This document shows, piece after piece, positions 9,820 to 52,605 of a DNA stretch of 64,000 nucleotides (position 1 is the stretch's first letter; each line of letters starts with the position of its first letter). The translations under genes were made by a program, and so were the position numbers. The DNA is from Candidatus Sumerlaeaceae bacterium (lineage in GTDB: Bacteria > Sumerlaeota > Sumerlaeia > Sumerlaeales > Sumerlaeaceae). Where the stretch lies: NCBI GenBank assembly GCA_026418615.1, contig JAOAAY010000004.1, positions 32,874 through 96,873 of the forward strand, in the 5' to 3' direction. The notes below the pieces were generated by a model, which saw only the letters and a list, made by a program, of their open reading frames with translations, did not search any database and was not told the DNA's origin.

Positions 9820-10116
9820 GAGCGGCCTCCGGGAATGTGATGGGCGGGTCCGGTCGCGACCGCGCGCAACAGCGCACCCCAATGGTGTTGAGCCGTCCGG
9901 CTGTTTGCACCGGCGGCCAGGGCGTTGGATCAGCGCGTTTCGTGGTCACCTGATTCGCGGCACCCGCCTAATCGTAGAAGAGTCTGTCCCTCTTCGTCCC
10001 TCATCTGCAACCCCAAACGGGATGGCGAAACAATTGCGGCACGATTATCGGTCCCAATGGACTGTTTGTTTCTCGCGTGTCGAGGTGTCGGACAAACTGT
10101 TCAGGGGTTCATTGAG

Positions 10117-13100
10117 ATGAAACACTGTTTTCTTGTGCCGGTGTGGCTTTTCGTTTGTGCCGGTCTGACGCTCTCCGCGGCGAGAAGCGAGCCCGCCACG
10201 CACACCGCCCAGACCGCCGTGGCCCTGTGGGAGCAACTTCCCCTCGCATTTGAGCCCAATGTCGGGCAGGCGCCGCCGGATGCGCTTTTCGTGTCCCGCG
10301 GAAAAGGCTACGCCGTTTCCCTTTGCCGCGATGCCATTTTGGTCGGGCTGGAACGGCGGCCGCGCACGGACCGATCCATGCGGAGCCGGCTGACCTCCGC
10401 CGGGCCGGACATCACCACCGCCGGAGTCGCCATCCGGTTTTCCGGAGTGGCGCCCGATGTGTCCTTCCACCCCGCGGAACGGCTGCCGGGTGTTGCCCAC
10501 TATTATTATGGGCGCGACGCCGGCACCTGGCACACCCATGTGCCTCGCTACGCGCGGGTCGAAGCGCGGGGGCTATACCCCGGCATTGACCTTGCCGTGT
10601 ACGGCAACCCGCTCGAATTGGAGTTCGACCTCGTCGTGGCGCCGGGCGCCGACCCTCACGCCGCCGCGCTCGAAGTCACGGGCGGCGAGTGCCGGCTTCA
10701 GCCCGACGGCTCGCTCAGCATCGCCACCGCGGCCGGCGCTCTCATTCTCCATGCCCCCGTCGCTTATCAGATCGCCGACGGGGGTCAGCGCCGGATTCCC
10801 GCCGAATTTGTCCTCGCAGAGGCCAGCCGCGTGTCGTTCCGCGTCGGCGAATACGACAAGACTCTGCCCCTCGTCATTGACCCGGTTCTCAGTTACTCCA
10901 CTTATATCGGCGGCTCGGGGACGGACGAAGTGCACGCCATTGCCGTGGATGCCTCGGGTCGCGTCTATGTCACGGGCAGCACGACAGGGAGTTTTCCAAC
11001 CAAGACAGGCTCGTACGATGTCTCGTTCAACGGGGTGTCCGATGTTTTTATTACGAAACTGAACCCCACGGCAGGCAGCGGCAGCGCCGCGCTCGTCTTC
11101 TCAACCTACCTGGGCGGATCCGGTGAGGATGAAGGCAACGGCATCGTGGTGGATTCCAGCGGCCGCCCGGTTGTCTGCGGCGTCACGGCTTCCAACAATT
11201 TCCCGTCAACAAAGTTGTTCGGGCCGCAAGGGGGGCGCGACGCTTTTATCGTCAGACTCAACTCGACCGGCTCGGCCATCTCTTACGCGGTGATCGCCGG
11301 CGGTACAGCCAATGATTTTGCCTCGGGCATCGCACTCGATGCCTCGGGCAACGCCTACATCACCGGCCTGACCGGCTCGTCCAATTTCCCGGTCAGCGGC
11401 TCCCTCCAACCCTACCGTGGCGCCGGGGATGCCTATGTGCTGAAATACCGCCCCACTTCCAACGACCTCGGTTATTCGACCTTCGTCGGCGGCACACTGT
11501 TTGACGAGGGCATCGCCATCGCGGTGGATGCGGATGGCGGAGCCATCATAACGGGCGACACGGACTCTACCAATTTCCCGCTGCAGGAGGCGTTCCAAAC
11601 CGTTTTGGGCGGCACCACCGACGCTTTTCTGACACGCGTCCGCAGCGACGCCAGCCGCCTCTCCTACAGCACCTTCCTCGGCGGCACGGGCTTCGACATC
11701 GGGTATGCCGTGGCCGTTGATGCCGGCTTCAACCCCGTGGTGACCGGTGAGACGCGGTCGTCGAACTTCCCCCTCGAAAAGGAATACGATTCCACCTACG
11801 CAGGCGGCCCGGGTGATGCTTTTGTAACCCGGTTTGGTAACGGCGGCGACGAACTGCTGTTTTCCACCTATCTCGGGGGATCCGGCGTAGATCGCGGTCT
11901 CGGTGTGGCGTACGGGCGCGACGGGTCGGTTTTTGTGGCCGGCGAGACCAACTCCGACAACTTCCCCACCGTGAGCGCCTACAGCAACTCCCGCGCCGGC
12001 TCCTTTGATCCGTTTCTCACCCGGTTCGCATCAGGCGGCAAAACGCTGATTTATTCCACCTATGCCGGCGGCACCGGCGACGACAAACCTTTCGGCCTGG
12101 CGCTCGACTCGTTTGGCCGCGCGTGGCTGGGCGGAGCCACGACCGGAGGATTCCCGACAGCCGGGAGTCCCTACCAGTCCACCTACGGCGGCAACACGGA
12201 CGGCTTCATCTCGCTGCTGGCGCCGACCGTGCGCACCTTTCAGCAGGATGTGTTCACCTCCGCGAATATTCAGCCGCCCGGATCAGCGACCGGGTGGAGC
12301 GTGCTTGCGTCTAATCCCGGACTGGCCGACGCCGACTACAGTGCCGCACTCAAAGCCCTGCGCGGCGTGATCGCGCCGGATGCATCGCGGTTCCGCATCG
12401 CCGGCTGGATCTCGAACGCGTCGGAGTGGCTCCCCTATGCCCAGATAGGCACCAGCCGGTTCGTGCGGGCAAAGTATTATCTGTTCACAGGCGGGCAGTC
12501 GAACCCGTCCTTGCTCAACACGATTCCGAACCTGCGCGTGCGCACCTCGCTGCGCTTTGCCCAGAATTCGATGCTCGAGGTCTTCCATCACGCCAACGGC
12601 GACCCGGCCAACGCCACACTGGCGCGCGAACTTCGCCCGTCTTCCGACCCGACGCGGCCCTCGCTCTACCGCGTGGACATGGATCCTGTGGATGTACCCT
12701 ATCTGGCGGCCAATAGCGCCGTGGAGGGCGTCCTGCGAGCCATGGAAGCCTATGCACTCGACCCGCAGGACAACGGGTATATTGCCATGAGCGAGAGCAT
12801 CATCGGCTCGTACGCTGCCACAGCCCTGCCCTCCGGAGTGGATCCGGTGCAGTCTTACAACACCTCGGACGCCGGGGCCGGAAGCCTCGCGGTGGTCAAT
12901 CCGGCGACGGAACTCGACCTGTATTGCCTGATCCTCGGCACGCTGCCGGGAGAATTCGGCACGCGTGATCCCGACCCGGCGACCACCAAACCATCCTACT
13001 GGGAGAACAGCGCCGGCGTCACCCTTGACGCGACCAGCGTCGCGACCGACCGCGTCGGGATTGGCAGCCGCGAATTCAACCCGGGCGCTTCACAGACGGC

Positions 13101-13602
13101 GCGTGCCCGCGTCCGCGAAGGGCGCCAGTATCTCATCCGTTGGCATGTGACCAGCACTCAGTTGTCCAACCGAAACGCTGGTCTTCGGCTGCGCGGCCGG
13201 ACAGCGAAGTTTGCCTGGTCGCAAAAACTCGAACTGGGCGGCGCTTGGGCCACCGGCAGCGGCCTCAATGCCAACAATAGCATTGCCCAGCAGTTGCTGC
13301 CCGGTATCGGATGTCAGAATCCCAGCAAAATTGATAACGAGAACGGCGGCTGGTACAACATGTTTATGCATACGCCCATGAGCGTGGACATCCGACCGGA
13401 TGTCGCGGGTGTCTTGAGCGACCGCATGCCAAACCTTTCGGCGCAGCCGGGGCCGGGCGCAAATGCTGCCTCGCGCCGCGACCTGCTGCTCGGCGCTGAC
13501 CTCGTGGACTCGATCTCCGGCGGAACTAATGCGGGTCTTGAACGCGGCAACTTCACCGTGGATCGCATAGATGTGTACGATTACCCGCTGGTGGATGACT
13601 GA
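10117..13602 (+). CDS. large secreted beta-propeller (SBBP) repeat protein
   Basis: Signal peptide MKHCFLVPVWLFVCAGLTLSAA. More than 12 tandem copies of the SBBP unit [YSTYLGGSGxDxGxGIAVDxxGxxYVTGxTxSxNFP] (e.g. TGSSNFPVSG, TRSSNFPLEK, TNSDNFPTVS). 1161 aa. Confidence 0.75.
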   Translation: MKHCFLVPVWLFVCAGLTLSAARSEPATHTAQTAVALWEQLPLAFEPNVGQAPPDALFVSRGKGYAVSLCRDAILVGLERRPRTDRSMRSRLTSAGPDITTAGVAIRFSGVAPDVSFHPAERLPGVAHYYYGRDAGTWHTHVPRYARVEARGLYPGIDLAVYGNPLELEFDLVVAPGADPHAAALEVTGGECRLQPDGSLSIATAAGALILHAPVAYQIADGGQRRIPAEFVLAEASRVSFRVGEYDKTLPLVIDPVLSYSTYIGGSGTDEVHAIAVDASGRVYVTGSTTGSFPTKTGSYDVSFNGVSDVFITKLNPTAGSGSAALVFSTYLGGSGEDEGNGIVVDSSGRPVVCGVTASNNFPSTKLFGPQGGRDAFIVRLNSTGSAISYAVIAGGTANDFASGIALDASGNAYITGLTGSSNFPVSGSLQPYRGAGDAYVLKYRPTSNDLGYSTFVGGTLFDEGIAIAVDADGGAIITGDTDSTNFPLQEAFQTVLGGTTDAFLTRVRSDASRLSYSTFLGGTGFDIGYAVAVDAGFNPVVTGETRSSNFPLEKEYDSTYAGGPGDAFVTRFGNGGDELLFSTYLGGSGVDRGLGVAYGRDGSVFVAGETNSDNFPTVSAYSNSRAGSFDPFLTRFASGGKTLIYSTYAGGTGDDKPFGLALDSFGRAWLGGATTGGFPTAGSPYQSTYGGNTDGFISLLAPTVRTFQQDVFTSANIQPPGSATGWSVLASNPGLADADYSAALKALRGVIAPDASRFRIAGWISNASEWLPYAQIGTSRFVRAKYYLFTGGQSNPSLLNTIPNLRVRTSLRFAQNSMLEVFHHANGDPANATLARELRPSSDPTRPSLYRVDMDPVDVPYLAANSAVEGVLRAMEAYALDPQDNGYIAMSESIIGSYAATALPSGVDPVQSYNTSDAGAGSLAVVNPATELDLYCLILGTLPGEFGTRDPDPATTKPSYWENSAGVTLDATSVATDRVGIGSREFNPGASQTARARVREGRQYLIRWHVTSTQLSNRNAGLRLRGRTAKFAWSQKLELGGAWATGSGLNANNSIAQQLLPGIGCQNPSKIDNENGGWYNMFMHTPMSVDIRPDVAGVLSDRMPNLSAQPGPGANAASRRDLLLGADLVDSISGGTNAGLERGNFTVDRIDVYDYPLVDD

Positions 13603-13620: not shown

Positions 13621-15024
13621 TCATTCGCCGCGCAACACCTTGTTAGCAGCAAGGAGCGCTGCGCGCAGATCACCGCCAGCATTGTCATTCAAATACTTGA
13701 TTCGGCCATCCTTGTCCGCAACCACCACCGCCACATTGTTGTCGGCAAAGCCCATGTCGCCGCGGAGCGATTTGCGCTGGCCGGCGTAACTGGGGAAGAA
13801 ATACGGGGTTTGCTTGCCGAAAAATTGGCTGGTTAAAGCGTCCGCATAGTCGGACAGCAGGAAATATGGTGGCTGTTTGTCCAGATATTTCTCAAACAGA
13901 TCGCTCAGATTAACCGATCGCACGACGAAAATCACAGGCGACGGCTCCTCCAGATCGCGATTCACCGTGTCCAAAACAGCCTCGACACCCAGGGTCAGGG
14001 CGGAACCATACGGGCTTGGTGTTCCCATGAAAGGGTTGTTCTGGGGCAGCAACTCCCCAAACACCAGGACAACATGGCCGGTGGAGGCGGCAGCGGAGAG
14101 GACATCGTCGCGGCTCACGAGGCGTCGCCCGAAAAACTCGACCCGGGCGAAATCCGGCAATTCCTCGATCTTGCGCGGGGGCTCTGCCTCCAACTTATTC
14201 AGATCGCCATCCAGCACGGCCACAACGACTTCAGAGAAATCCTTGGCGATCTTTTCCGCAACAATCCTGGCCGACCCAAGCGATAGCGAATCGCGCAGCG
14301 TACCCGCTGCGGACTTTGACGCCGTGCCCGGTACGACGCCCGTTAGACTGGCCGACCACGGCTGACTCGGCGAGGCGGGTACATCCAGGATGGGAGACAC
14401 CGTGACCGTCAACCGGGTGCTGCCGAGCACTTGGGACCCCTGAGCAGACAGCCGTGAGCGCAGTTCCATGCTCCCGCCAAAACCCCGGACACTGCGGCTG
14501 TTGAAGGTTAGCACGATCGTGAACGGCAGGTCGGTGAGACCGTTCGCACCCACGGGCGTGATCTTCTCGCGCAGCGGCACGGTCACCTCGTTGCCCAGCG
14601 TCAGCCACCCCTCCACCACATTCGTCAGGTTGCCCTGCCCCTTGCCCGGTTCCGCCACGACAAGAAGGTCTATTATTTCGGGAGCACTCCGCGCGAGGCA
14701 TTTGCTCGCATCAGCAAAACGGGTGAATGCGTGATAGGTTTTTCCGTGTATCACGCCCAGATTCACATAGTGCGAATACGAGGCGGCCGCACGGCTGGCA
14801 AACCGCCGGGGAACACTCTCCGTCTCAAAAGTGCTGCGGCTGCGCGCAACAGACTCCTGATCGCTGCCAGCCAACATGGCGTCGAGCCGGAGCGTGACCC
14901 GTGGAAGATCAGGCGACAGGTTTGACTGCAGCACTTCGTATTCCGTGGCGCCGTGCGCCAAGCCAGCCCCGGCGACAACAACGCAGACAACAGCCAGTAG
15001 CATGGCACTTCTCGGTAAACTCAT
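13621..15024 (-). CDS. hypothetical secreted protein
   Basis: 467 aa ORF with signal peptide MSLPRSAMLLAVVCVVVAGAGLAHG. Convergent with the SBBP gene. No recognised motif. Confidence 0.5.
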   Translation of the reverse strand: MSLPRSAMLLAVVCVVVAGAGLAHGATEYEVLQSNLSPDLPRVTLRLDAMLAGSDQESVARSRSTFETESVPRRFASRAAASYSHYVNLGVIHGKTYHAFTRFADASKCLARSAPEIIDLLVVAEPGKGQGNLTNVVEGWLTLGNEVTVPLREKITPVGANGLTDLPFTIVLTFNSRSVRGFGGSMELRSRLSAQGSQVLGSTRLTVTVSPILDVPASPSQPWSASLTGVVPGTASKSAAGTLRDSLSLGSARIVAEKIAKDFSEVVVAVLDGDLNKLEAEPPRKIEELPDFARVEFFGRRLVSRDDVLSAAASTGHVVLVFGELLPQNNPFMGTPSPYGSALTLGVEAVLDTVNRDLEEPSPVIFVVRSVNLSDLFEKYLDKQPPYFLLSDYADALTSQFFGKQTPYFFPSYAGQRKSLRGDMGFADNNVAVVVADKDGRIKYLNDNAGGDLRAALLAANKVLRGE

Positions 15025-18341: not shown

Positions 18342-19514
18342 GTGACCACGCGCCGATGTGCCATCATGCATATTGACATCCTCTACGATCCCCAAGCCGC
18401 GGCCGCAAGCGCACGCCGCATGGAGGCTATGTTTTCGTTAGGCATGGCGGACCGGCCGCCGGTCATCTGGGGTGCATGCCCGCGGATGCTGCTGGCCCGA
18501 CGGGGCTCCTCGTTTGCGCGCTTCTTTTCCGACCCCGTCACTCAGGCGACAGAAATCCTGCTCAACCATCAGTGGCTGGCCGAACATGTGCCGGGCGACA
18601 TGGTGACCGGCCTGACCGCCGGCATCCAGCCGCAATTTGAAAATGTCTCCAATTCCCAGTCGCTGGGGGCCGGCGTCCGGTGGGACGACCACCAGCCCCC
18701 GCAGGTCTTGCCGTGCATCCATACGGTGGCCGACCTCGAGGCCTACGAGCCGCCGCCCTTGGAGGGAACCCTCTGGCAGCGCATGATGGATTGGCACCGT
18801 GAAATGAAGGCATGGCTCGAGGGGGGCGGCGTGACCGTCACCATGCGCGGGGAACCGGTCAGTGTCGGCCTCGGTCTCCACATCGGCGGCGAAAGTCCGT
18901 TTTGCGTGGCCGTGGATTTGTGCGGCGCGCTGGCGTACGAGTGGCTGGTGGAGGCGCCCGAGGCCATGCACCGCCTTCTTGGGCTGATCACCGACCGCAT
19001 GATCGAGGTCGAGCGCATGATGCGCCGCCAGACGGGCGAGCCGGAGCGCGGAACATGGTTCCTGACCGACGACTCCGCGCAGATTGTCAGTCTGCGTTCC
19101 TACCGCGAATTTGTCGCGCCCTACAGCCTGCGCTTGTACGAGACCTTTACCGGCCCCGGCGACAAGCGCGTCATGCACTTATGCGGCAACCATGCGCATC
19201 TGTATCCGGCGCTGGTGGAGGACCTGCGGATTTCCGGTATCTGGGGATTCGGCGCCCCCGTCGCCCCCGAACAAGCCCGCGACGCCGTAGGGGGGCGCAT
19301 TTGGCTGGTCGGCAATCTCGATTGCAGCCTGCTTCGCGATGGCCCGCCCGACCGCATCGTGGCCGAAACGCGGCGCTTGCTCGACGCGCTGGGCCCCTGC
19401 GGCGGCCTCGGCGTCGGAGACGGGTACAATCTTATTCCGGATACGCCGCTGGAACATCTGCGGCTCGTCGTGGACACCGTCACGCAATGGGCCGCAGCGC
19501 TCAATCGCCCATGA
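18342..19514 (+). CDS. uroporphyrinogen decarboxylase (URO-D) family protein, MtaA/CmuA-like methyltransferase paralog 1
   Basis: 390 aa with URO-D/MtaA-like TIM-barrel composition (MHLCGNHAHLYPALVE..., C-terminal GGLGVGDGYNLIPDTP). Two further paralogs lie at 29336 and 41665. Confidence 0.7.
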   Translation: MTTRRCAIMHIDILYDPQAAAASARRMEAMFSLGMADRPPVIWGACPRMLLARRGSSFARFFSDPVTQATEILLNHQWLAEHVPGDMVTGLTAGIQPQFENVSNSQSLGAGVRWDDHQPPQVLPCIHTVADLEAYEPPPLEGTLWQRMMDWHREMKAWLEGGGVTVTMRGEPVSVGLGLHIGGESPFCVAVDLCGALAYEWLVEAPEAMHRLLGLITDRMIEVERMMRRQTGEPERGTWFLTDDSAQIVSLRSYREFVAPYSLRLYETFTGPGDKRVMHLCGNHAHLYPALVEDLRISGIWGFGAPVAPEQARDAVGGRIWLVGNLDCSLLRDGPPDRIVAETRRLLDALGPCGGLGVGDGYNLIPDTPLEHLRLVVDTVTQWAAALNRP

Positions 19515-20484
19515 CGGCGTCGCGCAGCGTGTCGCCGACGATGTTGAACGCCAGCATCGTCAAACAAATGGCCGCCGCAGGAAAAAACAGGAGATAGGGC
19601 GCCGCGCGCAGGTTGCTTGCTCCCTCGGCAGCCAGCGACCCCCAACTGGCATCCGGCGCAGGCACGCCCAACCCGATGTAACTCAGGAACGCCTCGGCGA
19701 AAATCGCCTCCGGGATGAACAGAGTCACCGTCACAAGGATGACGCCCGCGCAATTGGGCAGCAGATGGCAGCCGACGACTCGCACGGGGCCCGCCCCCAA
19801 CGCGCGTGCGGCCTGCACAAAATCCCGCTCCTTCAGGGCCAGCACCTCGCCTCGGACGAGGCGGGCCATGTTCAGCCAGTAGGTGAGCCCGATGGCCAAG
19901 TAGATATTAGCCACACCTTGCTCGAGCCAGACCATCAGCAGGATGACCAGCAGGATGGTCGGAATACCGTAAAGGATTTCCACAACCCGCATGAGCAGGT
20001 CGTCCACGCGGCCGCCCGCATACCCCGCCAAGGCCCCCACGCCAACCCCGACCACGAGGTTGATCAGTCCGGCCACGAGCGCGATCTGAAGCGAGATGCG
20101 CGCGCCGGCCAACACGCGCGCCAGCATGTCGCGTCCGAGAGCATCCGTACCGAAGGGATGCGTGCGCGATGGCGGCTGGTACACGGCCGAATAATTGGCC
20201 GTGTTGGGTTCATGCGGCAGCAGGGGTGCCAAGCCCCACGCAGCCGCAACCAGCAGGGCCAGAAAGATGAGGCTGGCTACGGCGGCGCGGTCGCGCACGA
20301 TCCGGCGGACTGCCGCCCGCGCGGGCGAGACGGGCGCGGCGTCGCCCGCCGGCGTCAGAAAAAGGTCAGTCCGGGCTGGCCGCGGCGCCACCGGACTCGG
20401 CCCCGGGAGCAGCCGGCTCAGGATCCGGCCCACGGTCAAGATAACGGTTGATCTCGTCCACAATCGCCGCAACCGCCTCTTCAT
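19501..20484 (-). CDS. ABC transporter permease, oligopeptide/dipeptide (OppC/DppC) family
   Basis: PFGTDALGRDMLARVLAGARISL N-terminal OppC motif and the EAA-like loop ALKERDFVQAARALGAGPVRV. No cognate ATPase or SBP is nearby. The true start is probably internal or non-ATG, because the longest ORF overlaps the upstream gene. Confidence 0.8.
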   Translation of the reverse strand: MKRRLRRLWTRSTVILTVGRILSRLLPGPSPVAPRPARTDLFLTPAGDAAPVSPARAAVRRIVRDRAAVASLIFLALLVAAAWGLAPLLPHEPNTANYSAVYQPPSRTHPFGTDALGRDMLARVLAGARISLQIALVAGLINLVVGVGVGALAGYAGGRVDDLLMRVVEILYGIPTILLVILLMVWLEQGVANIYLAIGLTYWLNMARLVRGEVLALKERDFVQAARALGAGPVRVVGCHLLPNCAGVILVTVTLFIPEAIFAEAFLSYIGLGVPAPDASWGSLAAEGASNLRAAPYLLFFPAAAICLTMLAFNIVGDTLRDAVMGD

Positions 20485-20956
20485 CCGGGGGAGTCGCCGT
20501 CACGCTGACTTCCTCGTCCGTCGCCGTGTTGCGGAAAGTGACGGTTTCGGCGCCCGTCTCGTCGTCACGGTCTGTGCGCAGCCACTTAAAGACCTGAAAC
20601 TTCATCAGCAGGTGCGAGATGACATATAAACGCTGGGCGTTTGCGGCCGCATCCTGCGCCAGCCAGTCAAAATAGGATAGAAGGATGGCGTTGCGCTCGC
20701 GTTTGTTTGCGCGCGTGTCGGGCTTGGGCGGTTCGCGGCGGGCAATCCAGAAGCCATAGTAGCCGCGCTCGCGCACCTCAGGCCAGCATTGCTCGCAAAA
20801 ATCTTCGCGCAGCGGTTCCGCGCCGGCCTCGTCGTCGTCGTCCGGGACCACGGCAAGCACCGACGGGTGCTTCCCACCGGCGGCGATGGCTGCGCCGCAT
20901 TTGGCGCAGGTGTTGCGCGGGCGCGCAATCTTCAGGTAAATCTCTCGGCTCAACAT
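20366..20956 (-). CDS. hypothetical protein with putative C4 zinc-ribbon
   Basis: CAKCG...CEQC cysteine pairs and an acidic C-terminus. Co-directional with the flanking genes. Confidence 0.45.
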   Translation of the reverse strand: MLSREIYLKIARPRNTCAKCGAAIAAGGKHPSVLAVVPDDDDEAGAEPLREDFCEQCWPEVRERGYYGFWIARREPPKPDTRANKRERNAILLSYFDWLAQDAAANAQRLYVISHLLMKFQVFKWLRTDRDDETGAETVTFRNTATDEEVSVTATPPDEEAVAAIVDEINRYLDRGPDPEPAAPGAESGGAAASPD

Positions 20957-21041
20957 GTCGCTCCGTGCAGCGGGAAACTCAGATATTTAAACAGATCTTC
21001 TGCGCATGACACGATGCGCGTCAACCCGCGACTTACCCCGG

Positions 21042-22316
21042 CTATCGCGCCTGATTGGGGCGCGACTCGCGCGTGCCGCCAAGCAGCCACCCTAACCCGG
21101 CCACAGGCGGCCGCGGTGTCTCGTTGTTCGTGACTGCGGCCGGAGCCGGCGGCGTGGCTTCGGCCTGGGTCTTGCGGTATTTCGAGAAAAACATATACCG
21201 CTCCACGACCAGAATGCCGACCCCAAGGAGCAAAACGACCAGCATGGCAGCCGCGACCGTCATCAACCGCTGTTTGATGCGGTCCGCCGATTCCCGGATG
21301 AGCGGGCCGAGCCGAATCCGCACCTGAGCGTCGAGTTCCGAAGCGACAAGCGTCGACACCTGCCGCGGCAACTGCTTGTCGAGCACCTCGGCCAGTGTGC
21401 TCTCGGTCATGTCGGCAATTAAATCCTTTGCCATGCGCGGAACCAGTTTCTGCGCCGCGGCCTCGATGATCGAAACAACCTTTTGCGAAGCATCCGGCAC
21501 GAGGTTTTCGGCCTCCTTCTGGACGCGCCGCTGGACTTCCTTCGGCAGCATCTGATCCAGGCTCGCCTGAAGGTGCTCGCGGAGCATCGGCGGCAGCACC
21601 TGCTCTGCAGCGCGGCGCACGGCCTTTTCCGTCTCCTCGCGCAAGATGACATCAATGGATTCTGTGACGCGCCGCTCCGCAAGTTTCTCGATCATCGAGC
21701 GAGCCACTTCCTGAACGGTCATCTTGACGAGTTCCTGCTCCTTCTCGGCCGTCAACTGGCTGACGCGCTGCTCAACCTCGCGCCGTGCGCGATAATCCAC
21801 CTGGGAAACGACCATTTGCAGGGCGCGCTCGGTGATGATTTGCGTGCGCTGCTCGACGGCCTCCTGCAAGGTGGCCTCTGCCAACTGCTGCATCATGCGC
21901 TCGGCGGCGGCTTTGAGGTGGAGGCGTCCCTCCTCCAGCACCCGCTTCTCCTCGAGCAGCGTCGCCACCTTGCGCGCGAGTACCTCCGGCTCAAACGGCT
22001 TGCGGATGAATCCGTTGGCCCCCAACAGGTCCACGCTTTCGCTGTCCGAGGTTTCATCATCCGGAACCAAAAGCAGGACAGGTTTGTCAAAGAATTCCGC
22101 ATCAGTCCTGAGCGCCCGCGTGAGTTCGGCGCCGCTCAACTCCTTGAGCGATCGGTCAATGACCAGCAGGGCCACTTGGGACAGTTCCGGATAGGCGAGC
22201 GCCGCGATGCCGTTGGCCGCCGCGGCTACACGGTAGCCTTTCATTTCCAGCACACTGCGGCACATGTCCTGAATGGCCGCGCTCTCGTCCACCACGAGGA
22301 TCAATTCACCTGCCAT
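21042..22316 (-). CDS. response regulator: receiver domain, long coiled-coil, and C-terminal transmembrane anchor
   Basis: The receiver domain reads LILVVDESAAIQDMCRSVLEMKGYRVAAAANGIAALA...LLVIDRSL (phospho-Asp) ...GANGFIRKPF. About 250 aa of heptad-rich coiled-coil follow. A terminal hydrophobic helix reads LMTVAAAMLVVLLLGVGILVV. Confidence 0.75.
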   Translation of the reverse strand: MAGELILVVDESAAIQDMCRSVLEMKGYRVAAAANGIAALAYPELSQVALLVIDRSLKELSGAELTRALRTDAEFFDKPVLLLVPDDETSDSESVDLLGANGFIRKPFEPEVLARKVATLLEEKRVLEEGRLHLKAAAERMMQQLAEATLQEAVEQRTQIITERALQMVVSQVDYRARREVEQRVSQLTAEKEQELVKMTVQEVARSMIEKLAERRVTESIDVILREETEKAVRRAAEQVLPPMLREHLQASLDQMLPKEVQRRVQKEAENLVPDASQKVVSIIEAAAQKLVPRMAKDLIADMTESTLAEVLDKQLPRQVSTLVASELDAQVRIRLGPLIRESADRIKQRLMTVAAAMLVVLLLGVGILVVERYMFFSKYRKTQAEATPPAPAAVTNNETPRPPVAGLGWLLGGTRESRPNQAR

Positions 22317-22337
22317 CCGGGCGCCTCCTTGGGGTCA

Positions 22338-23702
22338 TCAGCCGAACACCTTCGCCGTCAGGTCGTCGAAAGTAAAATCGGCCAAAAGCATGATGGTCGC
22401 CCGCCGGCGCCATTCATCAAAAGCCTGTGAGAACAGGTCATGGGCTGCCTTGGGCCCCAGCCGCTGAGCGGCAAGCACATAAAGCATTTTCAAGCATCGG
22501 GTGACGGCCTCAAGCGTCTCGGCATAGGAACCCTTGAAAGCCCCCTCCACGCCGGCCCGCTCCACGAAACGGTCGAAACGGCCCGAATCCAGCCGGTTGC
22601 CCGACGCCGTAACCAGATCCGCCCGCGGACAAACCGTCACGGCCGTGCGCCAACATTGCTCCGCGAGATGATCGTCTGCTTGCCCCGTATAAAAGTTGGG
22701 ATCCGACACCAGACGGCGAATGAGATTGTTGGTCAGATCGGTCAAACACGCCACGGAGTTCGGGTAATGTAGGGCTGGCTCCGGCTCCGGCGGAGGCGCT
22801 GCCGCAGGAACTCCACCGTCCGGTTGCGGCACATCCCGCCGACGCGAAAACAGCGCCAGCAGACGCGCGGAGGTGGTGCCGGGTTGGGAGGCTTTCGGCC
22901 TCGGAGTATTCGGGCCGGATTCGCCTTTCATCCCCTGCATCATGACTGGCGGGCCGGCAACCGGCGGCTCCACGGGTGCCGTCTCTTTCTCCAACCGGAT
23001 CAGCCCCGCCGCTAGAAAAGAGTTGAGGATGCGGCAAGTCTCGAACCGGCCGACCCCGCTGCGCTGACAGATGGACTCGACCGTGCTGAAGCCGTTGATC
23101 AGCGACAAGACGCGCCACTCGTCGGGCGTCAGGTTGTCAATGTCGAGATCGGCCCGACCGCCGACCCGAACCACCGACGGCACCGCCGCTTCGCTCGGGA
23201 TATTTTTCACGATGCGGGCCCACTCGTCCTCCCGCCTCGCGCCCTCCATGACCAGACGGTCCACATCCAGTTCCACCACCGCCGGGCCGACTTCCTGCTC
23301 GCTGGAATGCTCAAACTTGAAGGTGCCTTCTCTCAGCGCAAAAAGGTCGTACACCTCTTCTTCAACCTGCAGGCGTATGGCCTGCGACAACTGCTCCCGG
23401 GTGAGAAGCCCCTGATCCACCAGCAAGTCGCCCAGAGGCGGCTGGCGCAAGGAGCGCTCCTGCTTCAGGATGGCCTCCTCCACATCACGCCGCGACACAA
23501 GACCGCGCGTCACCAGCATGTAACCCAGTTTTCGGGGACGCTCCACACTCGACGAGTTGACAACCCGTCCGGCACGGATCCCGATCCGCACAACCTTCTC
23601 GCCGTGCGTGACCGTAAGCGACCCGGTTAGGCGGTTCATGCCAACGAATTGCAGTACTTCAGGCAGGCTGACTGCAGAGTCGAGGCGTCCCTCAAGTTCC
23701 AT
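22338..23702 (-). CDS. DUF4388 (PatA-N-like) domain protein with tandem MshEN/T2SSE_N-type c-di-GMP-binding motifs
   Basis: N-terminus GRLDSAVSLPEVLQFVGMNRLTGSLTV matches DUF4388. The two 24-residue motifs KLGYMLVTRGLVSRRDVEEAILKQ and PLGDLLVDQGLLTREQLSQAIRLQ fit the MshEN consensus RLGxxLVxxGLIxxxxLxxALxxQ. Confidence 0.7.
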   Translation of the reverse strand: MELEGRLDSAVSLPEVLQFVGMNRLTGSLTVTHGEKVVRIGIRAGRVVNSSSVERPRKLGYMLVTRGLVSRRDVEEAILKQERSLRQPPLGDLLVDQGLLTREQLSQAIRLQVEEEVYDLFALREGTFKFEHSSEQEVGPAVVELDVDRLVMEGARREDEWARIVKNIPSEAAVPSVVRVGGRADLDIDNLTPDEWRVLSLINGFSTVESICQRSGVGRFETCRILNSFLAAGLIRLEKETAPVEPPVAGPPVMMQGMKGESGPNTPRPKASQPGTTSARLLALFSRRRDVPQPDGGVPAAAPPPEPEPALHYPNSVACLTDLTNNLIRRLVSDPNFYTGQADDHLAEQCWRTAVTVCPRADLVTASGNRLDSGRFDRFVERAGVEGAFKGSYAETLEAVTRCLKMLYVLAAQRLGPKAAHDLFSQAFDEWRRRATIMLLADFTFDDLTAKVFG

Positions 23703-23763
23703 GGGATAGTGACGCTAACCGAACCGCCAAACGGCTCGCAATTCGTTTTTGGCGGCCCGCCGC

Positions 23764-24669
23764 CTACTGCGATCCGACGGCCGCCCGACGCCGGACGGGA
23801 ACGGCCACGACCATTTCGTCGTCATCACCAGGCCCCCCCGCACGCGACGCCACTCCGGGGGACGCAGAAACCTTGGCCGGCTGGCCGTCCTTAGCCCGGA
23901 CTGGCCGCGCAGAGCCGCGACGCGGCAGGGGTTGAGCGGTTTCGGGAACGGCTGCCGTTTCCGCCGCCGCGTCGCCCTCGCTGTCCCCGCCCTCGGCGCT
24001 GACAGCCGTGCCCACAGGCGCGCGATCAACTCCGGCTCGCTGCATCAGCGCCAGGATCGCGTCGGATTTCGCAAAAACCGCATGATCCCACGGGTCTTTC
24101 TGGCTGAGAATGCCCTGCACGCGTCCTTCCTGATCAAGCACCGGCCCGCCCGAGTACCCCTGTCGTACCTTGGCGGAACTCATGGCAAATCCCGGCATGA
24201 CTTGCTCGCGCATCACACTGCCGTGGGAAATCCGGTACCGGTCCGGAAAATGCCCGACAATCGTGACCTCATCGCCTGCCCGCAGCCGGAACGGGACGAC
24301 CGGCAGCGGCTCGACATTGGCCGGTTTGGACACCTTGAGCAGCAACAGATCGTTGCGCGCATCGCGTGCCACCACGCGCGCCGGCATCCGGTGGCCGGTC
24401 CGGGTGTCAACAAAATAGTCGGTCGTCGGAGATTCCCCCAGCGGCGTCGGTATCCGGCTCATATGGTGGCAGGTCAAAACCAAACCCGGAGCCACAAAAA
24501 AACCTGTCGCCGTGGCACTGGCCATGCCAAAGCCGGCCTTGCGAACCTGCGCTGTCACCAGCACGCACGCCTCGCGCGTCGTGTCATCAAGGGATGGGCT
24601 CGCGCAACCGGATGGCAGCCCTACTACGATCAGCGCTGCAACTAGCAGCAACCGGAACGGGTTCATCAT
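23764..24669 (-). CDS. trypsin-like serine protease (S1 family, HtrA/DegP-like catalytic domain without PDZ)
   Basis: Signal peptide. Catalytic triad context: LVLTCHHM (His), NDLLLLKV (Asp), GYSGGPVLDQEGRVQGI (Ser). Confidence 0.8.
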   Translation of the reverse strand: MMNPFRLLLVAALIVVGLPSGCASPSLDDTTREACVLVTAQVRKAGFGMASATATGFFVAPGLVLTCHHMSRIPTPLGESPTTDYFVDTRTGHRMPARVVARDARNDLLLLKVSKPANVEPLPVVPFRLRAGDEVTIVGHFPDRYRISHGSVMREQVMPGFAMSSAKVRQGYSGGPVLDQEGRVQGILSQKDPWDHAVFAKSDAILALMQRAGVDRAPVGTAVSAEGGDSEGDAAAETAAVPETAQPLPRRGSARPVRAKDGQPAKVSASPGVASRAGGPGDDDEMVVAVPVRRRAAVGSQ

Positions 24670-26372: not shown

Positions 26373-27473
26373 TCACGGGGCGTTGGCAAGTTGCTGCGCC
26401 GGCTCAACCATGGGGAGAAACGCGTCCACCACATCCGGATCAAACAGAACCCCCCGGTTTTCACGCAGGTATTCGGCAGCCTTGGCGGGCGAAATCGCGC
26501 TGCGGTACGGCCGGTCCGAGGTGAGAGCGTCCCAGACATCCACCACCGCAAAGATGCGCGCCGCCAGCGGGATTTCCTCGCCCTTAAGCCCCGCCGGGTA
26601 GCCTGACCCGTCCCAGCGCTCGTGATGGGCGCGCGGAATGGCCAGCGCCGGCTCAAGGAACTCGACCCCCGCCAGCATTTCGCATGCGCGCAGCGTGTGC
26701 TGACGCATGATTTCCCGCTCCTCGTCACAAAGAGGTCCCGGCTTGGACAGGATCGAGTCGGGAACGGCCATCTTGCCAATATCGTGCAGCAGCGCGCCCC
26801 GGCGGATATGGACGATTTCTCCCTCCGCAAGACCAAGCGCGCGTGCCAGCGCCACCGTCTGTTCCGCCACCCGCCGCGTATGCCCGTGTGTTACCGGATC
26901 GCGGATTTCGAGCGCAATGGCCCACCCTTCGATGGTTTGCTCGTAAGCATCGCTTAGTTCGCGGTAAAGTCGCGCGTTCAGAATCGAAGTCCCGACATGG
27001 TTGGCGACAATCTGCAAATACTCGAGATCCGTCTGCTTAAAGGTGCGGCCGGAGTTCACTGCATAGACGCCGAGCACTCCCACCGCCTGATTGCGCACGA
27101 GCATGGGCGCGCCAGCGTAAGCCTCGAATCGAAACTGAGACGAGCCTTGCGAGCAATCCCACGAGGTCGTGATCGCGTGGGTGCTGGCATTATTGATGCA
27201 TAGAGGTTGCTGCTGGGTTAGCAAGTACTGGGCAATACCCGAGTGCGGCGACATGCTCGGCATCAGCCGCGACGGCTCCACTCCGGAGCAGGCCAGCAGA
27301 TGCAGTTGACCATCGCGCAATTCGCGCAGGATGGCGGCATCCGCCGCAAACGCATCGCGCAGGTGCTCGGCCGCTTCCTGCATCTGAACATGAAAAGGAG
27401 CCGTGCCGACAACAAGTGCCGACACGCGCGAAATGAGCGCGATGCGGCTGGTGAGATCGGATTGCTGCTTCAT
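26373..27473 (-). CDS. GAF domain-containing HD-GYP phosphodiesterase (c-di-GMP hydrolysis)
   Basis: N-terminal GAF-like region. HD-GYP signature HDIGKMAVP ... HHERWDGSGYP. Confidence 0.85.
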   Translation of the reverse strand: MKQQSDLTSRIALISRVSALVVGTAPFHVQMQEAAEHLRDAFAADAAILRELRDGQLHLLACSGVEPSRLMPSMSPHSGIAQYLLTQQQPLCINNASTHAITTSWDCSQGSSQFRFEAYAGAPMLVRNQAVGVLGVYAVNSGRTFKQTDLEYLQIVANHVGTSILNARLYRELSDAYEQTIEGWAIALEIRDPVTHGHTRRVAEQTVALARALGLAEGEIVHIRRGALLHDIGKMAVPDSILSKPGPLCDEEREIMRQHTLRACEMLAGVEFLEPALAIPRAHHERWDGSGYPAGLKGEEIPLAARIFAVVDVWDALTSDRPYRSAISPAKAAEYLRENRGVLFDPDVVDAFLPMVEPAQQLANAP

Positions 27474-30721: not shown

Positions 30722-33700
30722 ATGAGGCAATTCGTACGGATTTCTGCGTGGGCGGCTGCAGTGGCTGTTGGGATGTTGGCGGGGTTGTCAGCGGGCGCGA
30801 GGCCCGCTCAAGGGCCGGATGCGGCGCCCAAAACCGTTCGCGTGGAGGTGCTCGACGCTTCCGGCAAACCGGCCAGAGGGGCCGAGGTCGCTCTGGTGAC
30901 GCTCAGGTTCGGGCGGTTTGACGGCTGGCGAGAGGCCCCGGACGGCAAGGCCGAATTGGCAATCCCATCCGACCAGAACAGATTTGGGCTTGAGGAGTCC
31001 GCACAAGAGGAGATCGCAGCGCGGGCACCCGGCCACGCGCCTGCCACGGTCAAGTGGAATCCCGAAAGCGGTTCGTCAGCCACGGTGCGGCTCAAACGCG
31101 GCAAGCGCGTCAATTTAGAAATCAAAACCGCTGATGGCCGGCCGTTGCCGGAAGGAGTTCTACCCGTCGTTTTTGCGCCAAAGACTCGCATGCAAGTGTT
31201 GAGGCCCTTAGTATCCGCCTTCGGCACCACTTCGGGACCACTGTTCCATTATTATCGTGTCGAACAACGCGCACCGGGCCGTTTCAGTGTCATGGTCTCA
31301 CCGGAAGACGGGCCGTTGACTGTTTATGTGGACTGTCCCGGTCTGCTGCGCGGATTTGTGAGCGAGGCATTTGAGCCCAAAGCGTGGGACAAGCCGCTCA
31401 TCGTTCAACTGCCCGCGGCCGGGACGGTCGTCGCCACCTTCGAGCCCAAGCCCGCCATCCGCACCGACCTGACGACTTTCATCGTCAGCCTGCGGGGGAA
31501 GGATCCGATGCCGGCCTTTTACGATCTCGCCGCCGTGGTGTCGGGCGCCGGGCAGCCGCGACGCGCGGTGTTCCCGGATCTTGCCCCCGGACAATACGAT
31601 ATTCTGGCCGAGACCGGAACTGGATGGGTGAAGCGGGCATGGGCTGGTCCGGAAACAGTTGCCGTCCAGGGCGGCTCCTCGGCCACGGTTGCTCTCAAGC
31701 AACGGCCAGCCTTACCGGCGTTGCGGGTGACCGACGCGGCGACCACCGGCCGCCCCGTGAGGGCATCCGCATTTGTGATTCGCAAACAGCGTGACTTATT
31801 CCTGCTGACGGGCACGGGCTGGGTCCCTGTTGGGCCTGACGGCCGCATCCGCTTTGACATGAACCAATTTGCCCCCCGCGACCCATGCGAGGACGCGAGT
31901 CCGTGGGAGTATCCGGTACTGGTCAAGGCACCCGGATTTGCTCCGAAAACCTTGACGCTTCGTACCTCGACTGTCGCCACGACGGAGGTCATTGTCCCTC
32001 TTGAACGCGGCAATCCGATCGAAATTGTTCTCGAACCGCCCGAAGGGATGTCCATTCCGGAAGACCTCATCCCCGCCGTGTGGTTTCCACCTTTTGGTCC
32101 GATCCTCGGCTTGATACCCTATACGACGAGCCTGCAGGAGGTTTGGGCACAATCGCCGGTGCTCGATACGGAAAGGATCGCGCCGGGACGCTACAGGGTC
32201 CGCATCACCACGGGCACAGAACAGTTGGTGGTCGGCGTTCACCACTCAAGGTTCCTGCGTGGATTTGTGTCGGATGTTTTCTCTCTTCAGGATCTCTCGG
32301 GCAGCCCGCTTGTGCTCCGGCTGCCCAAACCCGGCGGCCTTGAGGTCACCGCAGATGTGCGCGAATACTTAAAAACACCGGGACCCAAACCGGATTCCAT
32401 TGAACTGACCATGATGCCCGCTGAGGCGGGTGACCGCATGCCCATCAACGCCTTGGGCTGGCAACGCAGACTTGGCCTACAAGACGGAATAGCCTCTTAC
32501 CAGGCGGCAGATCTGGCCCCCGGGCGCTATGAGGTTTTCATCACGGCGGCTTTTGACGCGGGTGACGACCAGCGCAAAACATTGAGCGGCAATTCCGAGT
32601 TGAAAGTTGAGTCCGGCACGACAGCCACCGCAACGATCGCCCTGTCCGACACCACCAGCCGTCGCGGTCCCCGGCAATTTGCTTTGCCTGAGGTTCGCGT
32701 CCTCAGCGCGACCGGCAAACCCGTGACCAATGCCCGGGTCTTTGCTCGCCGGGTTGGCGACGAGATGAATGTCACGCGGGGTGAGGCGGCCGGCGACGGC
32801 CGTTACCAATGCAAGCCATTGGTTGCATGGTCCATGACAACGGGGGAACCGTTGACCTCGGCCACGGCGGAATTGCTCGTCACCGCACCGGGTCACACCG
32901 CAACGACCATGACGCTTGAGGTGCCGACCCGCCAAAATCTGATCACGGTGCGACTGAAAAAAGGTCGCGAGGTGGAGTTGCGCCTCAACCCTGCCGAGGG
33001 AACTTCCATCCCGGAGACCCTTGAGCCGATCATCTGCGACGAGACGATGCTAGGCGCTGCATGGATCGGGCTTTCACCCGACTCGGCAGACAAAGGGTTT
33101 TCTCTGGCCAGTGTCACGCGGACCGGCACTGGACGCTACACTTTCCAAGTCGCCAAGGAGACAAGCGGACTCTATGTGCTGATCCACGAGCCCGGCTTCC
33201 TGCGAGGATTTCAAGCAGGCCCCTTCGGGGCGGACCAAGTGGCCAAAGGGCGCATTGAAGTGGACTTGCCGAAACCGGTGACGCTGACCGCACGGTTCCG
33301 TCCTGCGAAGCCCGACACCCCTGCCACTTATACAGCGTGCTGGGCCGCGATTGACCGCCTCGTGATGCTGCCCGGGGAGAGATTCATGTACATGAAGATC
33401 GCCCAAACCGAAGCGGCCGGCACGACGCTCGAAGCACAGTTCTCCGATCTCGCGCCCCTCGACTTGAGGGGCCGGTATAGCGTCGAGGCTGGTACAGGGC
33501 GTTTATCCGAGCGGTTTGGGCCGCCTGGACAATCCTACAGCGACCGCGCCGAGGCGGACTTCCAGGACGGCACCAGTGCCACAGTTGAAATCCTTTACGA
33601 GCCCTTCGACCGCGACATGCTCAAAGGACCGTACACGGCTGTTGTGACGGTGCTCGGGCGAGACGACAAACCTTTGGATGGAAAGCCGTTCCGCGTCACT

Positions 33701-34423
33701 TATTACGACCGCAAATTCGGCCCCCACACCGTCGCTCAGGGAACCATTCCGTCATCGGGTGTCGTGGAATTGCGCGGACTGGCCGGCGGCGTGGACAAAC
33801 CGACCTCTTTGAGCGAATTTCGCGGGAAATTTCCACCAACTTATACTTTTACCATCGGCGACGAGGATATTGGCTCCATCCAATTCGTCAAATTCGACCG
33901 CCAGAGCGGGCTGGTATTGCCGGCACATACCGATCAGGTGGCCGAATTCACTTTCCGGATGCCGCCGGTCGTCGGCGATATGGCACCGGATATCGAATTG
34001 ACCGAAGTTTTCGGCGACGGGACGCTGCGTCTCTCCGATCTGAGGGGACAGGTCGTTTTCCTCGATTTCTGGGCCACATGGTGCGGCCCGTGTCAGGATC
34101 CCATGAAGGCGCTCAACGAACTGGCTGCCAAACACAAGGATGACTGGGCAGGGAAGGTCGCGCTGATCGGGGCCAGCATTGACGACAACAAGGCTACGGT
34201 GCAGAAACATGTGAAAAAGAAAGGCTGGGAGAGCGTGCGCCAAATGTGGTGCGCCGTGCCGGATGGCTCAGGCGGCTGGGAAGCCCCGCAAGTGCGCACC
34301 TACGGCGTTCGCGGCGTGCCCACCGCCCTCCTCATTGATCAGCAGGGCCGCATCGTCTGGCGGGGGCATCCGGCCGGATTCAACAAAGAGGGCGAAATCA
34401 CACGGCTGCTGCAAAGCAAGTAA
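30722..34423 (+). CDS. giant secreted protein: three carboxypeptidase-regulatory-like/beta-sandwich repeat modules fused to a C-terminal TlpA/ResA-like thioredoxin domain
   Basis: Signal peptide MRQFVRISAWAAAVAVGMLAGLSAGA. Repeated modules containing VRVEVLDASGKPARGAEVAL-type starts and PGLLRGFVSEAF / SRFLRGFVSDVF / PGFLRGFQAGPF. C-terminal LRGQVVFLDFWATWCGPCQ thioredoxin-fold active site. Confidence 0.8.
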   Translation: MRQFVRISAWAAAVAVGMLAGLSAGARPAQGPDAAPKTVRVEVLDASGKPARGAEVALVTLRFGRFDGWREAPDGKAELAIPSDQNRFGLEESAQEEIAARAPGHAPATVKWNPESGSSATVRLKRGKRVNLEIKTADGRPLPEGVLPVVFAPKTRMQVLRPLVSAFGTTSGPLFHYYRVEQRAPGRFSVMVSPEDGPLTVYVDCPGLLRGFVSEAFEPKAWDKPLIVQLPAAGTVVATFEPKPAIRTDLTTFIVSLRGKDPMPAFYDLAAVVSGAGQPRRAVFPDLAPGQYDILAETGTGWVKRAWAGPETVAVQGGSSATVALKQRPALPALRVTDAATTGRPVRASAFVIRKQRDLFLLTGTGWVPVGPDGRIRFDMNQFAPRDPCEDASPWEYPVLVKAPGFAPKTLTLRTSTVATTEVIVPLERGNPIEIVLEPPEGMSIPEDLIPAVWFPPFGPILGLIPYTTSLQEVWAQSPVLDTERIAPGRYRVRITTGTEQLVVGVHHSRFLRGFVSDVFSLQDLSGSPLVLRLPKPGGLEVTADVREYLKTPGPKPDSIELTMMPAEAGDRMPINALGWQRRLGLQDGIASYQAADLAPGRYEVFITAAFDAGDDQRKTLSGNSELKVESGTTATATIALSDTTSRRGPRQFALPEVRVLSATGKPVTNARVFARRVGDEMNVTRGEAAGDGRYQCKPLVAWSMTTGEPLTSATAELLVTAPGHTATTMTLEVPTRQNLITVRLKKGREVELRLNPAEGTSIPETLEPIICDETMLGAAWIGLSPDSADKGFSLASVTRTGTGRYTFQVAKETSGLYVLIHEPGFLRGFQAGPFGADQVAKGRIEVDLPKPVTLTARFRPAKPDTPATYTACWAAIDRLVMLPGERFMYMKIAQTEAAGTTLEAQFSDLAPLDLRGRYSVEAGTGRLSERFGPPGQSYSDRAEADFQDGTSATVEILYEPFDRDMLKGPYTAVVTVLGRDDKPLDGKPFRVTYYDRKFGPHTVAQGTIPSSGVVELRGLAGGVDKPTSLSEFRGKFPPTYTFTIGDEDIGSIQFVKFDRQSGLVLPAHTDQVAEFTFRMPPVVGDMAPDIELTEVFGDGTLRLSDLRGQVVFLDFWATWCGPCQDPMKALNELAAKHKDDWAGKVALIGASIDDNKATVQKHVKKKGWESVRQMWCAVPDGSGGWEAPQVRTYGVRGVPTALLIDQQGRIVWRGHPAGFNKEGEITRLLQSK

Positions 34424-34449
34424 ACATCTTGATCAAGGGGGTAGAGACC

Positions 34450-51144: not shown

Positions 51145-51332
51145 CTTGTGTATGGAGAGTTAGGCAAAACTTCGCGGAGAAGCCGCCGCACTACTACAGC
51201 GCGCCATGCGATAGCCTTCGGTGACAGGCGCGTGAGGCCCCCGAGACAGACTGCAAACAGGTCCGCACGGTGACCATCAACCGCCGTTTATCACACCCCT
51301 TGAATTCTCCGCGGAGCGGCCATTAGAAGAAC

Positions 51333-52568: not shown

Positions 52569-52605
52569 ACGCAACGCGACATCCGTCGCCGTATCCGAGC
52601 CGCCC

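Follow-up and report, generated by a model that had tools for sequence, protein, structure and literature searches.

PATAN proteins (DUF4388/PatA_N in Pfam) number more than 8,000, and their genes are often neighboured by genes for MglA and MglB; in cyanobacteria, PATAN domains reach the membrane, interact with PilB1 and PilC and are enough to switch phototaxis (10.1101/2021.06.11.447907). In Myxococcus, PATAN proteins are found together with SgmX, a regulator of pili. The biochemical function of PATAN domains is unsolved. Here we analyse a 64,000-nucleotide stretch of DNA from a Candidatus Sumerlaeaceae bacterium (contig JAOAAY010000004.1, positions 32,874 to 96,873; hereafter the window), in which a gene for a PATAN protein (gene 1) is followed directly by a gene for a membrane-anchored receiver protein (gene 2). 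Gene 1 likely encodes a receptor for c-di-GMP (cyclic dimeric guanosine monophosphate), and its pairing with gene 2 recurs throughout the phylum Sumerlaeota.

Receptors are the scarce part of c-di-GMP signalling. One class carries tandem 24-residue MshEN motifs whose consensus is RLGxx(L/V/I)(L/V/I)xxG(L/V/I)(L/V/I)xxxxLxxxLxxQ (Wang et al. 2016). In MshE, each motif contacts the ligand through Arg, which stacks on a guanine, a Leu-Gly pair, two Leu and a terminal Gln, which forms hydrogen bonds to ribose and phosphate, while the central residues form the core of a helix bundle (PMC5013675). PilF contains variants of this module: GSPII-B, with K167 and L196 at the first positions of its motifs, binds c-di-GMP with a dissociation constant of 6 nM, and GSPII-C, with P335 at the first position of motif II, binds at about 460 nM (PMC11731258). 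As relayed in the PATAN preprint, the "alpha-clip" of PATAN proteins consists of two repeats of antiparallel helices, which are also found at the N-termini of type II secretion (T2S) and type IV pilus (T4P) ATPases (10.1101/2021.06.11.447907, citing Makarova et al. 2006).

The insert of the PATAN protein

Gene 1 and the parts of its product are as follows.

22338-23702 (-): gene 1, 454-residue cytoplasmic PATAN protein (open reading frame, DUF4388, homologues, AlphaFold model)
23364-23540 (-): alpha-clip or MshEN_N-type four-helix insert, predicted c-di-GMP site, residues 55-113
23460-23531 (-): motif I, KLGYMLVTRGLVSRRDVEEAILKQ, residues 58-81 (pattern match)
23367-23438 (-): motif II, PLGDLLVDQGLLTREQLSQAIRLQ, residues 89-112, with a 7-residue spacer before it (pattern match)
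22983-23135 (-): winged-helix-like domain, strongly conserved, residues 190-240
22797-22982 (-): Pro/Ala-rich disordered linker, residues 241-302 (model confidence and identity)
22341-22796 (-): lineage-restricted C-terminal domain, predicted helical bundle and small sheet, residues 303-454

An earlier note, made from the DNA letters, had read a DUF4388/PatA-N segment at the start of this protein, and the Pfam family DUF4388/PatA_N (PF14332) indeed matches residues 10-162 with 102.1 bits against a cut-off of 25. The note had placed the two motifs after this domain. Instead, the motifs sit within it, as the Pfam match runs across both and the AlphaFold model resumes a β-strand at residues 126-132. 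The model (mean predicted local distance difference test score, pLDDT, 79) shows strands in residues 2-50, the last at 46-50, then four helices in residues 56-121 (56-65, 71-83, 90-96 and 102-121), the strand at 126-132 and more PATAN elements. The order in the product is thus a PATAN core with an inserted four-helix segment, a winged helix, a disordered linker and the C-domain, and on this model the insert is a PATAN alpha-clip.

Both motifs hold up in independent searches. In the six-frame translation of the window (127,996 residues), a relaxed MshEN pattern (Wang et al. 2016) has exactly two matches, both in gene 1, compared with a mean of 0.14 in shuffled translations; motif I also matches a strict version of the pattern. 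The NCBIfam model NF053729 ("c-di-GMP_motif, MshE-related", 53 positions) matches residues 58-111 with 40.1 bits (E 2.3e-10), above its curated cut-off of 38 bits, and matches 18 of 18 members of the gene 1 family. A family profile built from these 18 members and run against all PDB sequences matched through the insert segment only (residues 54-111). It matches Thermus thermophilus PilF (whole-sequence E 2e-17), best at GSPII-C, residues 301-358, in an alignment free of gaps, the 7-residue spacer included. Further matches are PilB of G. metallireducens, isolated GSPII-B (8pdk and related entries) and the N-domain of Vibrio cholerae MshE (5htl, E 4.5e-5). Models for NfrB and EpsG match residues 53-117 weakly. 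The earlier claim of two MshEN motifs in the 454-residue protein is therefore confirmed by curated and structure-anchored searches alike.

At the positions that contact the ligand in MshE, the window protein has K, L, G, V, I and Q in motif I and P, L, G, L, I and Q in motif II. Across 56 family members, motif I keeps R/K at position 1, L/I, G and the terminal Q in 55 members each. Motif II keeps G91 and Q112 in all 56, with L, P or M at position 1. Each departure from the consensus has a precedent in a proven binder: Lys and Leu at first positions in GSPII-B, and Pro together with the spacer in GSPII-C. Conservation of the insert (mean pairwise identity 48%) comes close to that of the folded core (55%). 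Taken together with the precedents in proven binders, this makes c-di-GMP binding by the insert likely.

A DUF4388 domain with two MshEN motifs is, in contrast to what the earlier note implied, no unusual fusion. The alpha-clip has been known since 2006, and 7 of 10 unrelated DUF4388 proteins also match NF053729 (28-65 bits, 3 above the cut-off).

The remaining parts set the protein apart. The winged-helix-like region gives a sub-threshold Pfam match to MarR_2 (residues 190-239), and the linker is modelled at pLDDT below 50 over residues 241-300, with a mean pairwise identity of 17%. The 150-residue C-domain is modelled at pLDDT 94, and neither Pfam nor NCBIfam has a match to residues 303-454, as the first reading of the sequence had anticipated; that reading was also correct about the secretion ATPase, as neither database matches T2SSE_N or T2SSE (MshEN_C/T2SSE_N1, ATPase) to the product. 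A profile search over 1.84 billion representatives found the C-domain nowhere outside the architecture of gene 1. At least 56 full-length homologues exist, the named ones all from Sumerlaeota. What is already known in kind is a PATAN domain with alpha-clip, MshEN-type c-di-GMP binding and the association of PATAN with MglA/MglB; a fixed, phylum-wide PATAN architecture with a private C-domain is new.

The receiver protein and the conserved pair

Gene 2 starts 21 bp after the end of gene 1. Its parts are as follows.

21042-22316 (-): gene 2, 424-residue receiver protein with helical region and transmembrane anchor (open reading frame, homologues)
21966-22301 (-): receiver (REC) domain, residues 6-117 (Response_reg, 62 bits)
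21282-21959 (-): conserved helical region, residues 120-345 (conservation and heptad scan)
21198-21266 (-): single transmembrane helix, residues 351-373 (Kyte-Doolittle 19-residue mean up to 2.87)
21045-21197 (-): variable tail after the transmembrane helix

Scanning a single genome of each species gave 61 loci. In 23 of these the match reaches into the C-domain of gene 1; 22 are labelled Sumerlaeota/BRC1 and one "bacterium". Neighbours were compared across these 23 loci (hereafter the 23 Sumerlaeota loci) with tblastn and clustering of open reading frames. In all 21 loci with downstream DNA, gene 1 is followed directly, after 5-125 bp and on its own strand, by a gene for a receiver homologue that is 40-60% identical to the gene 2 product over residues 1-350. 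The same pairing occurs at two more loci found through the receiver protein (L067 and L068). The synteny check proposed for the 454-residue protein and its receiver gene thus came out in favour of the pair, and across the 23 loci no further gene is kept beside it phylum-wide. As judged from gene order, the PATAN-receiver pair is a two-gene operon kept across the phylum Sumerlaeota, and a functional partnership of the two proteins is highly probable.

The receiver protein belongs to a family that has not been described before, in which the receiver partner is split off and anchored in the membrane. The family has about 96 near-full-length homologues, the named ones from Sumerlaeota; scores then drop from E 1e-64 to 1e-15, a level at which the match is confined to the REC domain. 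Within REC, D10 is kept in 89, D54 in 90 and K106 in all of the 96 homologues. Phosphorylation of this receiver is plausible from its residues, and the usual switch may differ from that of other receivers.

The earlier note had described the receiver as followed by about 250 residues of coiled coil and a C-terminal transmembrane helix. The receiver and the helix stand, at residues 6-117 and about 351-373, whereas for the coiled coil a crude scan detects a heptad pattern in about residues 116-150 only. A continuous coiled coil was rejected: the scan gives it no support past this part, and the helices are broken by prolines at residues 242, 243, 258, 274, 293, 317 and 338, spaced 16-24 residues apart from residue 242 on. 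Conservation in the product is highest at residues 161-220 (column conservation 0.75-0.86), which points to a specific surface for binding more than to a generic coiled coil. In each of the 96 homologues, a single strongly hydrophobic segment is found at residues 340-360, with a tail of 3-101 residues after it, and basic residues before the transmembrane helix of the window protein predict a cytoplasmic REC domain.

The pole organiser PopZ has DUF2497 as its conserved C-terminal domain (PMC5182065). DUF2497 matches the gene 2 product with 25.1 bits, below the gathering threshold of 27, and 6 of 24 members match at E ≤ 0.01. We set aside a PopZ-like DUF2497, together with DUF445, in the helical region as sub-threshold matches in a minority of members, which amount to a weak lead.

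Genomic context

In at least eight Sumerlaeota loci (L006, L007, L009, L013, L015, L016, L067 and L068; partly also L012 and L019), the pair closes a seven-gene cluster on one strand, with the order tetratricopeptide repeat (TPR) protein, Roadblock-like, Roadblock, Arf/Ras-like GTPase, Roadblock, PATAN and receiver. In L012, too, GTPase and Roadblock genes adjoin the PATAN gene. The cluster spans 3919-10576 in L006, 4491-11152 in L067 and 3917-11221 in L068, which come from distant Sumerlaeota. Its Roadblock-like protein has 300-350 residues, the Roadblock protein next in order about 115, and its GTPase about 400 with a long C-terminal extension. From gene order, the cluster appears to be a more complete version of the unit, and the window retains just its last two genes.

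A second set of loci contains orthologues that lack the insert. In Zixibacteria, Coatesbacteria and unclassified bacteria, the gene for a 355-residue PATAN-winged-helix protein immediately follows a Roadblock (MglB-like) gene and the gene for a 197-residue Arf/Ras-like (MglA-like) protein (L046, 6663-8936; also L037, L041, L050-L052 and L054). A similar 392-residue protein is found in Gemmatimonadota (L038), where a GTPase gene was not seen beside it. In these proteins, profile residues 1-50 and 113-237 align back to back and the alpha-clip is absent; apart from the Gemmatimonadota protein, they match the C-domain weakly. The c-di-GMP-type module, read from these alignments, is therefore a discrete insertion found in the Sumerlaeota branch, and the comparison of proteins with and without the insert in one gene context is new. 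Because GTPase and Roadblock genes accompany the family both in Sumerlaeota and in the Zixibacteria-type loci, we regard gene 1 as a member of a family of MglA/MglB-associated PATAN proteins. The suggestion of localisation or polarity signalling made in the earlier note is supported to this extent, by the MglA-like and Roadblock/MglB genes upstream of the pair in other Sumerlaeota.

Two arrangements were observed besides these. In relatives from the Sumerlaeaceae, a divergent gene directly upstream of the pair encodes a 1196-residue fusion of Hsp70, TPR and Ser/Thr kinase parts (L001, 4295-7885; also L002, L003 and L008), which is absent from the window. Tandem PATAN-winged-helix units, about three per protein of 1000-1150 residues, are encoded in L035 (6651-9869, "bacterium") and in loci labelled Planctomycetota (L036, L040, L045, L047 and L055).

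The genes flanking the pair in the window lie outside the conserved unit, and the nearby GAF-HD-GYP gene is its neighbour at genus level only.

23764-24669 (-): trypsin-like protease, 301 residues, Trypsin_2, lipoprotein-like signal, without PDZ (open reading frame and Pfam)
20366-20956 (-): 196-residue CxxC...CxxC (zinc-ribbon) protein (open reading frame)
19501-20484: open reading frame of an OppC-type permease, partner of the zinc-ribbon gene
26373-27473 (-): GAF-HD-GYP phosphodiesterase (HD_5, 141 bits, and GAF)

The four minus-strand open reading frames at 20366-24669 were all found as the earlier note gave them, on one strand, with gaps of 61 bp between protease gene and gene 1, 21 bp between the genes of the pair, and 85 bp between gene 2 and the zinc-ribbon gene. 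The note rightly called the protease PDZ-less: Trypsin_2 (81 bits) is its sole Pfam match. The GAF/HD-GYP protein also is what it had been taken for, with HD_5, GAF and the sequence HHERWDGSGYP in its translation. Neither protein has a homologue at or near the pair in any of the 23 Sumerlaeota loci. Genes for the protease, FKBP, ABC-3 and HD-GYP are found again only in a relative whose PATAN protein is 84% identical; the GAF-HD-GYP gene is present in L062 and L063. The HD-GYP gene shows, judging by its domains, that c-di-GMP is turned over in the organism, and its link to the pair is at genus level only.

The zinc-ribbon protein has no Pfam match above threshold and belongs to a small family of 11 homologue clusters. 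In the unrelated contigs L064 and L065, its homologue stands between a divergent TPR gene and an OppC permease gene, and neither a PATAN nor a receiver gene is present. In the window, its reading frame shares 119 bp with the reading frame of the OppC-type permease at the latter's annotated start. As a partner of the pair it was rejected, since its homologues precede OppC-type permeases at loci that lack the pair; by this gene order it is part of an OppC-type transporter unit, whose uncharacterised accessory it may be. The proposal of a four- or five-gene cassette was thus not borne out, because the pair alone is conserved, the protease and HD-GYP genes go with it at genus level, and the zinc-ribbon gene goes with the permease.

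An Rfam scan of the window returned one tRNA and neither a c-di-GMP riboswitch nor another structured RNA; a promoter and terminator scan, which was uninformative, gave no promoter-like sites. A defence system was considered and dismissed, as PADLOC gave generic protease and REC matches only. Elsewhere in the window, 30722-34423 and 34429-36384 encode adjacent proteins of 1233 and 651 residues that both end in an AhpC/TSA-thioredoxin-like domain and have long N-terminal parts with almost no family matches. A 1225-residue DUF7948/SBBP β-propeller-repeat protein is encoded at 9925-13602; in L001-L003, homologues of it are encoded a few kb downstream of the pair, as residual family-level synteny. 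Reading frames of about 465 residues at 13621-15024 and 51291-52685 have no Pfam match at E ≤ 1e-4.

Readings of the pair and comparison with known systems

The domain identities, the conservation of ligand contacts, the strict pairing and the association of sister lineages with MglA/MglB are directly supported, and from them we infer ligand binding, a physical interaction of the two proteins and an output. In the scheme that we favour, the pair would feed c-di-GMP and phosphorylation into a polarity or type IV pilus switch, and we give this scheme as a whole about an even chance. The alpha-clip would bind one molecule of c-di-GMP in the manner of MshE or PilF. Since the insert lies inside the PATAN fold, binding would alter which partners the surfaces of PATAN, winged helix and C-domain can reach. 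The membrane-anchored receiver would act as an obligate partner that (I) tethers the complex at the inner membrane and (II) adds a phosphorylation input from a kinase. The output would be an MglA/MglB-type GTPase module, the type IV pilus motor, or both, and would concern the localisation or activity of a motility machine and not transcription. This output is tentative, with somewhat less than an even chance of being right. Type IV pilus genes are reported for all Sumerlaeota genomes analysed (PMC8092238).

Several observations weigh against this scheme. At the ligand site, the score of gene 1 exceeds the NF053729 cut-off by 2 bits, motif II starts with Arg in only 4 of 56 members and lacks it there in 52, and the spacer has 7 residues in 54 of 56 members compared with 5 in MshE, whose unit has 53 residues. 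The accessible literature, which leaves many subscription papers uncovered, contains no c-di-GMP binding experiment on any PATAN alpha-clip; a PATAN-embedded version is absent from the list of MshEN architectures in Wang et al. 2016, and the three MshEN proteins counted there for Synechocystis are too few to cover its PatA-type regulators. In the receiver, the Thr/Ser switch position (residue 84) is Val or Ile in 92 and Thr or Ser in none of 96 homologues, and no kinase gene adjoins the pair. Synteny is the sole basis for an interaction between the two proteins. In the lineage of the window (Sumerlaeaceae; the 64-kb window, L001-L005 and L008), no MglA/MglB genes lie within reach, and the annotated genes of the window include none recognised as a pilus gene.

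Several of these points feed the strongest rival, in which the alpha-clip is a protein-protein module that lost or never had c-di-GMP binding, for instance a mimic of the N-terminus of a PilB-type ATPase that competes for its partner, with the role in polarity or motility retained. Such mimicry has been proposed for cyanobacterial alpha-clips (preprint 10.1101/2021.06.11.447907). The absence of Arg from most copies of motif II and a spacer unlike that of MshE would fit it, the conserved Leu and Gly residues could be purely structural, and the orthologues that lack the insert are presumably functional. However, the terminal Gln residues are near-invariant although in MshE they contact the ligand and are not part of the core, every deviation has a precedent in a proven binder, and the curated NF053729 threshold is passed. 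We therefore judge a non-binding alpha-clip unlikely, if credible.

The winged helix allows another reading, in which gene 1 encodes a c-di-GMP-responsive transcription factor and the receiver is a membrane-bound anti-factor or co-regulator; we think this improbable. A larger functional unit, comprising the protease, PATAN, receiver and zinc-ribbon genes and the nearby HD-GYP gene, would account for the single strand and the short gaps, and its order is kept in the relative with the 84%-identical PATAN protein. Yet the three extra genes lack homologues beside the pair in the 23 species-level Sumerlaeota loci and the zinc-ribbon family travels with an OppC-type permease, so that the synteny data already contradict such a cassette and leave it very improbable. 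A bolder extension of the c-di-GMP scheme takes the unit of PATAN, winged helix and C-domain as a regulator or scaffold of MglA-type GTPases, akin to the longin/winged-helix proteins NPRL2 and NPRL3. Here, the MshEN_N insertion would have made the Sumerlaeota GTPase switch c-di-GMP-gated, and the receiver would integrate a phosphorylation signal at the membrane. We regard this extension as speculative and distinctly unlikely; if true, it would give PATAN domains a biochemical function and c-di-GMP a new route to cell polarity.

For the favoured scheme, the consequences reach beyond this phylum. If the alpha-clip binds c-di-GMP, many PATAN proteins become candidate receptors, and there would be a direct c-di-GMP route into polarity control of the MglA/MglB type. 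Orthologues with and without the insert in the same MglB-MglA context offer a natural comparison, and the claim is testable on purified protein despite the uncultivated organism.

The closest described relatives in layout are the cyanobacterial PatA-type PATAN-REC regulators (PixG, PixE, PilG, LsiR and Anabaena PatA), which share a PATAN domain with a two-repeat helical insertion and a CheY-like receiver companion. In them, the PATAN part serves as output: it localises to the membrane and binds the motor of the pilus (preprint 10.1101/2021.06.11.447907). In contrast to these regulators, the Sumerlaeota receiver is a separate, membrane-anchored protein with a conserved helical region of roughly 220 residues, the PATAN protein has an additional winged helix, linker and private C-domain, and no chemotaxis-type kinase or MCP genes are found nearby. 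Fused PATAN-REC polypeptides do exist elsewhere (homologues P0058-P0064), whereas REC is here encoded by the next gene.

With MshE of V. cholerae and PilF of T. thermophilus, the insert shares tandem 24-residue motifs, a predicted four-helix bundle and the key Leu, Gly and Gln residues; PilF GSPII-C even has the same spacer length and a Pro at position 1 of motif II as in the window protein. In contrast to both, the module lies inside another domain and not at the N-terminus of a secretion ATPase, MshEN_C/T2SSE_N1 and ATPase domains are lacking, and binding is a prediction from sequence. Non-ATPase proteins with MshEN_N (Bd2402, of REC-MshEN_N-UNK type, NfrB, EpsG and CheX fusions) provide a precedent for the 53-residue module as a portable c-di-GMP sensor (Wang et al. 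2016).

As for the MglA/MglB module of Myxococcus and others, the likeness lies in gene order: in several Sumerlaeota, and likewise in Zixibacteria-type genomes, the PATAN gene comes immediately after genes for a Ras-like GTPase and Roadblock proteins. The GTPase genes are, however, not adjacent in the lineage of the window, and the Sumerlaeota GTPase is, with about 400 residues, extended at length. In FrzS and AglZ of Myxococcus, a long helical stretch follows an N-terminal receiver-like domain, and these proteins serve as polar scaffolds in motility under MglA control. No homology of gene 2 to proteins of this type was detected beyond REC; unlike them, the Sumerlaeota receiver has retained its phospho-acceptor Asp, is anchored by a transmembrane helix and lacks a continuous heptad pattern.

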